Source: Escherichia coli
Lineage (GTDB): Bacteria > Pseudomonadota > Gammaproteobacteria > Enterobacterales > Enterobacteriaceae
Direction: 5' to 3' (one strand)
Assembly: GCF_022846255.1 (NCBI RefSeq)
Contig: NZ_AP025682.1
Length of the DNA: 64,000 nt
Under the pieces are notes generated by a model. That model saw nothing but the letters and a program-made list of their open reading frames with translations, ran no database searches and was not told the origin of the DNA. Numbering within the stretch: position 1 is the stretch's first letter; every line of letters begins with the position of its first letter. Below, piece by piece: positions 60,456-61,029 of this stretch. The position numbers and the translations under genes are program-made.

Positions 60456-60516
60456 AATAAAATCTCAAACGCCCCGCGTTGCGGAGTTAATAAAATGAGG
60501 TAAAGGTTTATTGTTG

Positions 60517-61029
60517 TTAGCTGAGGCGTTGAGGGCCAGCACGGATGCCTTGCGCCTGGCTTATCCAGACGGGCGTGCTGAATTTTGCTTGTGGGGTAAA
60601 ATGCGCATAATCAATGCGATAACCCTTTTCAGACGGCGTGCCTTCCTGGGTCAGAAGCGCGCTAAGCGTATCCAGTAATGCAAGATGTTGCGCCTGAAGA
60701 GGCAAAGATTCTTCAGCAACGGGCAGCGTTTGCGGTGCCATCGCGAAGGAAAGATGGCGGATTACCGTGCGAATGGCATGTTGATGCCAGTAATCAACGG
60801 AATAGTTCGAATTCGGGCGGCGCGTGTTCGCTTCCAGCAAGGCCAATTGACCAAAGTTAACTTTGGCTGAAGGCTCGTGGTTGCGGGTTGTCGCTTTTGC
60901 GGGCGCGTTTGGTTCGGCGGCATTGCTGAGTGCAGGCAAACCTAAACTCGCCGCGACCATCCCTAATAAGAGATGCGGCCAGAAGTAGCGTTTACCAAAC
61001 TGTCGCCAGCGCGTCAGTATTCCACTCAC
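60517..61029 (-). CDS. secM: Secretion monitor SecM (translation-arrest leader peptide regulating secA)
   Basis: Within ORF 60517..61182; GTG 61029 gives (M)[36 protein letters not shown] (170 aa); C-terminal [17 protein letters not shown] arrest motif. Confidence 0.88.
60532..60582 (-). promoter_or_regulatory. SecM ribosome-arrest motif coding segment ([17 protein letters not shown])
   Basis: Codons read on the minus strand from 60582 to 60532 translate exactly to [17 protein letters not shown], four codons before the secM stop. Confidence 0.85.

Follow-up and report, generated by a model that had tools for sequence, protein, structure and literature searches.

The secM-secA arrest-peptide locus of an Escherichia coli genome and the helix predicted to mask its secA start region

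Introduction

In VemP-secDF2 of Vibrio and MifM-yidC2 of Bacillus, the arrest of a ribosome opens a stem-loop that masks the SD of the downstream gene (PMC10987492, PMC7897499). The SecM-secA pair follows the same logic, in which a nascent chain that is being exported or inserted arrests the very ribosome that makes it, close to the end of the upstream ORF, although the arrest sequences and the target genes of the two other systems are unrelated to those of SecM-secA. The N-terminus of SecM acts as a signal peptide (PMC10987492, PMC7897499), and for the K-12 protein the signal sequence is established (PMC10987492). According to the cryo-EM and biochemical work reviewed in PMC10951299, the arrested ribosome has Gly165 in its P site and Pro166 in its A site. 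Arrest, this site assignment, release of the arrest by export and induction of secA are all taken here from the literature (PMC10951299, PMC10987492, PMC7897499).

Here we describe the secM-secA locus contained in a 64,000-nucleotide stretch of E. coli DNA, referred to below as the window. We hold with high confidence that it is the canonical E. coli secM-secA translational feedback unit, in the allele carried by E. coli 536 and other strains. The regulator is already known, and there is nothing unusual in this copy. No bacterial arrest-peptide regulator has been studied more thoroughly, and the intact copy described here sits in an ordinary E. coli genome, so that its discovery value is small. 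The practical value of the locus is that of a positive control, since a real regulatory element was recognised, and its coordinates given correctly, from the raw sequence. What the comparison of sequences yielded besides (synonymous constraint on codons 166-170, co-variation of the helix arms with coding changes in divergent lineages and a possible nested or alternative hairpin) refines the design of the switch and leaves the overall picture unchanged.

Results and Discussion

The secM-secA locus in the window

The two genes lie on the same strand, with secM directly upstream of secA across a 61-nt gap, and RefSeq genomes annotate them likewise. The features on which the following sections draw are these:

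61029..60517, minus strand: secM coding sequence, GTG start at 61029, 170 codons, TAA at 60519-60517 (ORF with translation, family matches)
60919..61029, minus strand: SecM codons 1-37, N-terminal export signal region; protein identical to K-12
60582..60532, minus strand: arrest motif F150-P166, 17 residues, by direct reading; TTC (F150) begins at 60582 and CCT (P166) ends at 60532
60537-60535 and 60534-60532, minus strand: stall codons, GGC for Gly165 in the P site and CCT for Pro166 in the A site, positions read directly
60531-60520, minus strand: post-stall codons CAA CGC CTC AGC (Q167 R168 L169 S170), between Pro166 and TAA
60533-60520, minus strand: 5' arm of the predicted helix, CUCAACGCCUC-A-GC, made up of the final two bases of codon 166 (Pro) and the whole of codons 167-170 (MFE and centroid)
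60516..60456, minus strand: secM-secA spacer, 61 nt, the same length as in K-12
60486-60472, minus strand: predicted spacer hairpin CUCCGC-AAC-GCGGGG, whose 3' strand (60477-60472) doubles as the top of the helix 3' arm
60477-60464, minus strand: 3' arm of the predicted helix, GCGGGGCG-U-UUGAG, with U60469 bulged
60466..60463, minus strand: SD-like GAGA of secA, by direct reading; its GAG (60466-60464) is 8 nt 5' of the ATG
60455..57750, minus strand: secA coding sequence, 901 aa, ATG at 60455-60453; SecA_DEAD, PP_bind, P-loop, SW and SEC-C domains

The upstream ORF matches the Pfam profile PF06558 with 195.9 bits (cutoff 25, E=4e-58) and the NCBIfam equivalog NF002799 with 231.2 bits (cutoff 100). 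On these profile matches it qualifies as a true member of the SecM family and not as a mere analogue. A domain search of the downstream ORF recovered the full set of SecA domains. When searched as a degenerate DNA pattern, the motif FxxxxWIxxxxGIRAGP occurs once in the whole window of 64 kb, and 100 shuffles yielded no match at all. At the RNA level, an Rfam scan of 60200-61300 with E<=10 gave only a meaningless snoRNA match, and no curated family covers the element.

The K-12 locus (b0097-b0098), which serves as the reference for the secretion monitor (SecM) system, has the same gene order, the same GTG start, 170 secM codons, the arrest motif and a 61-nt spacer, and it is also identical to the window in the helix 3' arm, the SD region and the start of secA. 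Across 634 nt the two sequences differ at 13 nucleotides, 10 of them synonymous in secM, and the spacer has one difference, at loop position 60499. The SecM proteins agree at 169 of 170 residues; the sole amino-acid change is T170S, with G instead of C at 60521 (AGC vs ACC). Since residues 1-169 are those of K-12 SecM, the export signal is present in the window's protein by identity. We infer that the allele of the window behaves like that of K-12.

The single amino-acid difference lies within the predicted helix. With Ser170, two potential base pairs at the helix top are regained and the computed duplex energy is -18.3 kcal/mol, vs -17.5 kcal/mol with Thr170; the local MFE is -15.4 kcal/mol for the Ser170 sequence of the window vs -13.6 for K-12. 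Ser170 is the majority form, found in 23 of 25 orthologs, and is probably the ancestral one. Both the Ser170 and the Thr170 alleles are common among E. coli-type metagenomic junctions.

Within the species, a query of 701 nt from the locus matches E. coli 536 and many other E. coli strains at 100% identity. At a threshold of at least 95% identity, the secM-secA region is single-copy in 5,424 of 5,426 complete E. coli genomes, and a 161-nt core is at least 95% identical across all 5,424. Even those E. coli alleles that diverge most retain the arrest motif and both helix arms. Three of the 5,424 copies sit on plasmid-labelled records and two complete genomes gave no match, which are probably labelling or assembly issues.

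The arrest motif and its surroundings

Direct reading of the minus strand gives the arrest-motif codons as TTC AGC ACG CCC GTC TGG ATA AGC CAG GCG CAA GGC ATC CGT GCT GGC CCT, so that the 17-residue motif reported at 60532-60582 by the first-pass annotation is exact. The critical residues, which had been noted as free of substitutions, are W155, I156, R163 and P166, and all of them are intact. The motif had also been placed immediately before the secM stop, and this part has to be corrected: four codons, QRLS (60531-60520), intervene before the TAA. These post-stall codons matter, because together with the Pro166 bases they build the 5' arm of the predicted helix. The distance of 61 nt to the secA ATG at 60455 was borne out by our own count (60516..60456).

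For comparison, a genome scan provided 23 usable orthologous loci, ranging from Escherichia to Buttiauxella; the alignments cite 25 orthologs. F150, W155, G161 and I162-P166 are invariant in the 25 orthologs and the x positions vary, in keeping with the published consensus (the motif is defined in PMC10951299 and PMC10987492). The spacer is 57-68 nt long in 24 orthologs. A plain DNA-pattern scan of metagenomes added 83 true junctions, 41 of them distinct, and the critical arrest residues are invariant across these 83 as well as across the 25 orthologs.

A helix predicted to mask the secA start

The predicted fold of 60600-60440 contains a 13-bp helix between 60533-60520 and 60477-60464, with U60469 bulged, which is present in both the MFE and the centroid structure (z = -2.6) and encloses a 42-nt A/U-rich loop. 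Its computed pair probability in free mRNA is 0.87. The GAG of the secA SD-like site falls inside the 3' arm. GAGA is a weak match to the anti-SD, and a stronger complement, GGGG, is found at 60475-60472, at a distance of 16 nt from the ATG. The 3' arm contains both, and the identity of the weak secA SD is an assumption of this analysis.

The position of the 5' arm fits the geometry of the stalled ribosome. Counted from the first base of the P-site codon (60537 = +1), the arm spans +5 to +18. As is well established for the 30S mRNA channel and the ribosomal helicase (Takyar et al. 2005, cited in PMC9973294), the stretch from +1 to +13 lies inside the ribosome. Within that distance of the stalled P site are 9 of the 13 paired 5'-arm bases, including all five partners of UUGAG.

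Taken together with the published behaviour of SecM, these features suggest the following course of events. In free mRNA, the last two bases of Pro166 and the Q167-S170 codons (60533-60520) would pair with GCGGGGCGUUUGAG (60477-60464), and the pairing would bury the SD-like GAG together with the 5' half of the secA ribosome-binding site. An arrested ribosome would sit on the 5' arm of the helix, covering +5 to +13 from the P-site codon, and the 3' arm would thereby be freed for a second ribosome to initiate on secA. SecA/SecYEG, in exporting the N-terminus of SecM, would then pull on the chain and release the arrest, after which the helix would re-form and secA translation would fall. The arrangement for such stall-dependent unmasking, described earlier as conserved, indeed appears to be so: the sequence elements are essentially identical to those of K-12, the helix is the MFE structure and the modelled stall geometry fits the 5' arm.

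The helix is also reflected in the pattern of substitutions among orthologs. GGCGUUUGAGA is invariant in 25 orthologs except for one C-to-U change in Esch_E1V33. Across orthologs the helix is paired in 89-92% of cells vs 28-55% in slid registers. For the original ortholog set the figures are 91.7% vs 30-55%, the variation consisting of wobble-compatible single changes only. The enlarged core set is 88.9% paired and contains two double-sided changes, both in one metagenomic junction (L076), a number that is not significant (64 of 500 shuffles). In the 5' arm, third positions are limited to CAA (21/21 Gln codons), CGC/CGT and CTC/CTT, all of them pairing-compatible; at each of codons 161-165, two to four synonymous codons occur. 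The synonymous entropy of codons 166-170, after normalisation, is 0.22 vs 0.65 mid-gene (P about 0.001), a strong constraint.

Two further pairing candidates and one promoter-like sequence were set aside. The F150-P153 codons (60582-60567, -17.9 kcal/mol) were rejected as an alternative partner of the RBS arm, since any 45-nt secM window averages -17.6. A more distant complement at 60911-60898 (-22.5 kcal/mol) is attributed to chance, codons 43-44 at this position being among the most variable synonymously. The promoter-like sequence TTGAGA-17-AATTAT (60468-60440, minus strand), which overlaps the secA RBS, is at chance level, with one such site vs 0.8 expected.

Effect of a modelled ribosome on the helix and the secA start

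Folding with and without a stalled-ribosome footprint had been proposed in the first-pass annotation as a check on the unmasking. The check proved to be of limited informative value. The helix pair probability is 0.87 with no ribosome and 0 with a ribosome stalled at Gly165/Pro166; it is 0 also with a ribosome terminating at UAA, and 0.68 with one elongating at F150. The computed gain in accessibility has the expected direction, but it is modest and varies with the context and the model. In a purely thermodynamic model, opening the secA region from -20 to +13 costs 15.7-17.1 kcal/mol in free mRNA, 12.6-15.4 kcal/mol in the stalled state with the footprint alone (a drop of 1.3-3) and 9.9-13.6 kcal/mol in the stalled state with upstream RNA masked as well. 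Stalling lowers the RBS opening energy in every context tested, by 1-7 kcal/mol depending on the context. The mean unpaired probability of the SD region shows no consistent rise on stalling and, in several contexts, no rise at all. This measure is misleading on account of re-pairing, and opening energies were therefore used instead. The in-silico unmasking is weak because the freed G-rich arm re-pairs elsewhere; its partners are upstream secM, spacer or secA codons, varying with the length of the context.

Both the modest gain computed for stalling and the loss of the helix under a terminating ribosome at UAA would be compatible with a different explanation, namely that secA is governed mainly by a process other than stall-dependent unmasking, such as translational coupling through terminating ribosomes or the binding of SecA to the mRNA that encodes it, and that the arrest motif contributes little. 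We consider this very unlikely. A terminating ribosome would be expected to dwell for a far shorter time than an arrested one, and the invariance of the critical motif residues in 25 orthologs and 83 metagenomic junctions argues for selection on the arrest. Going by the title of Murakami 2004 (listed in PMC9973294), arrest is reportedly essential for both basal and regulated SecA expression, which counts against this explanation. Induction is credited to the stall in published work (PMC10987492, PMC10951299), and stall-dependent unmasking is also the reading that we prefer for the present locus.

The spacer hairpin

The GC-rich 6-bp hairpin at 60486-60472 is followed by CGUUUGAGAUUUUAUU, and a hairpin with a U-rich tract could in principle represent an intrinsic terminator or attenuator between secM and secA. 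Such a function is extremely improbable here, given that a terminator scan of 60300-61300 reported no minus-strand site, that the U tract is broken by GAGA and that secM and secA are described as co-transcribed (PMC10987492).

A possible role within the switch itself is suggested by the position of the hairpin, whose 3' strand lies wholly within the helix 3' arm. Instead of a helix that simply melts, the G-run at 60477-60472 might alternate between two partners, the tail codons of secM (OFF) and the spacer strand CUCCGC at 60486-60481 (ON hairpin), although we regard this only as a tentative and rather unlikely reading. In a three-strand switch of this kind, which is just as doubtful, the ON hairpin would block re-pairing of the arm and leave GUUUGAGA single-stranded. 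With the 5' arm masked, CUCCGC-AAC-GCGGGG is indeed the predicted fold in short contexts; in the stalled state, however, its probability ranges from 0.01 to 0.42, varying with the amount of secA sequence included. The hairpin is predicted at the same place in 25/25 orthologs and in the majority of the metagenomic junctions, its stem being conserved and its loop variable, yet in the folds of K-12 and Buttiauxella it is nested inside the lower helix, so that the two structures are not strictly exclusive. Double-sided changes affect three hairpin pairs in Buttiauxella. By inspection, one hairpin pair is changed in the metagenomic junction L113, and in L076 three strands have changed together, with CGC to CAU in the 5' arm of the helix, GCG to AUG in the strand common to both structures and GC to AU in the 5' strand of the hairpin. 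These compensatory changes nevertheless come from very few lineages and were read from per-sequence folds, a procedure biased towards finding pairs. Shuffled spacers, moreover, bind the arm equally well (native -7.8 vs -7.2 +/- 2.2 kcal/mol, fraction 0.32); in this control the automatic arm definition included the hairpin itself in many lineages, and in those with a clean definition the native spacer did not outperform the shuffled ones. As for its novelty, the hairpin may have been described already in structural work of 1997.

Two rare E. coli alleles touch the G-run that helix and hairpin share. One has GGG for GGGG (NZ_OZ547090.1; L028, AHB2) and may be a homopolymer sequencing error, and the other has ACGGGG in place of GCGGGG (NZ_AP043644.1; L026, E. 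coli AST85).

Divergent junctions in metagenomes

Several divergent metagenomic junctions, L058, L060, L083 and L103 among them, have in common with the locus in the window the stall module GIRAGP, a short tail beyond Pro166 and post-stall codons that are complementary to the start of secA. They differ from it in the sequences of the arms and in their targets. Whereas the 3' arm in the window covers the GAG itself, in L058 (CUUCCGUCUU pairing with AAGACGGAAG) and L060 (CGCUUCGUCUUGU pairing with AUAAGACGGAAGCG) the 3' arm stops just 5' of GAGA, leaving the SD itself unpaired. In L103, GUUAACA pairs with UGUUAAC over the secA AUG, and in L083 and L127 UUGGUUAA pairs with UUAACCAA just 3' of the AUG. 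The shifts of target in the divergent junctions track amino-acid changes in SecM residues 167-170.

The complementarity was ranked by comparing the 18 nt that follow the stall with 403 other windows of the same secM, each scored against the secA initiation region of its own locus. None of the 403 control windows scored as well in L035, L076, L058 and L103. Two did so in L113, four in L060, 6-7 in L083 and L127, and 14 at the locus studied here. Salmonella, Klebsiella, L048 and L089 do not stand out in this ranking, as 76-91 of the 403 controls scored as well there. Because the post-stall stretch ranks as the best or near-best complement in most lineages, its pairing with the secA start appears to outlast sequence turnover there. 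Judged from these sequences, pairing that is kept through turnover is the signature expected of the published mechanism.

One may go a step further and suppose, with low confidence, that it is mainly RNA pairing, and not the function of the protein, that shapes SecM residues 167-170 and the spacer, with the post-stall codons co-evolving with whatever part of secA is masked and the hairpin making the switch bistable and three-stranded. On this similarly speculative footing, E. coli would mask the SD, L058 and L060 the sequence directly 5' of it, and in L083, L127 and L103 the masked part would be the start codon.

One database hit deserves separate mention. A 287-bp contig (NZ_JAGEMM010000126.1, coverage 0.6; L025) in an assembly of the alphaproteobacterium Microvirga antarctica codes for a fragment of SecM that shares 72% identity with the E. 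coli protein. The contig almost certainly stems from contamination of the assembly with enterobacterial DNA.

The 5' third of secM

Synonymous sites in the first third of secM (61029-60930, minus strand) are near-invariant across genera, and the region upstream of the GTG is unalignable. Synonymous diversity is especially low in codons 16-27 (about 60984-60949). The codons R9 CGA, P18 CCG, H19 CAT, L20 CTC and A26 GCG are each found in 25/25 sequences, and five-codon runs have an entropy of 0.09-0.24 vs 0.65 mid-gene. RNAalifold predicts a stem-loop, GCCGC-AUCUCU...AGGGAU...GCGGC, through this region, without covariation. A constraint acting on the 5' third of secM at the RNA level is therefore possible, though unproven. 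The GTG start codon of secM is itself kept in 20/20 orthologs outside Buttiauxella, which suggests selection for a weak start.
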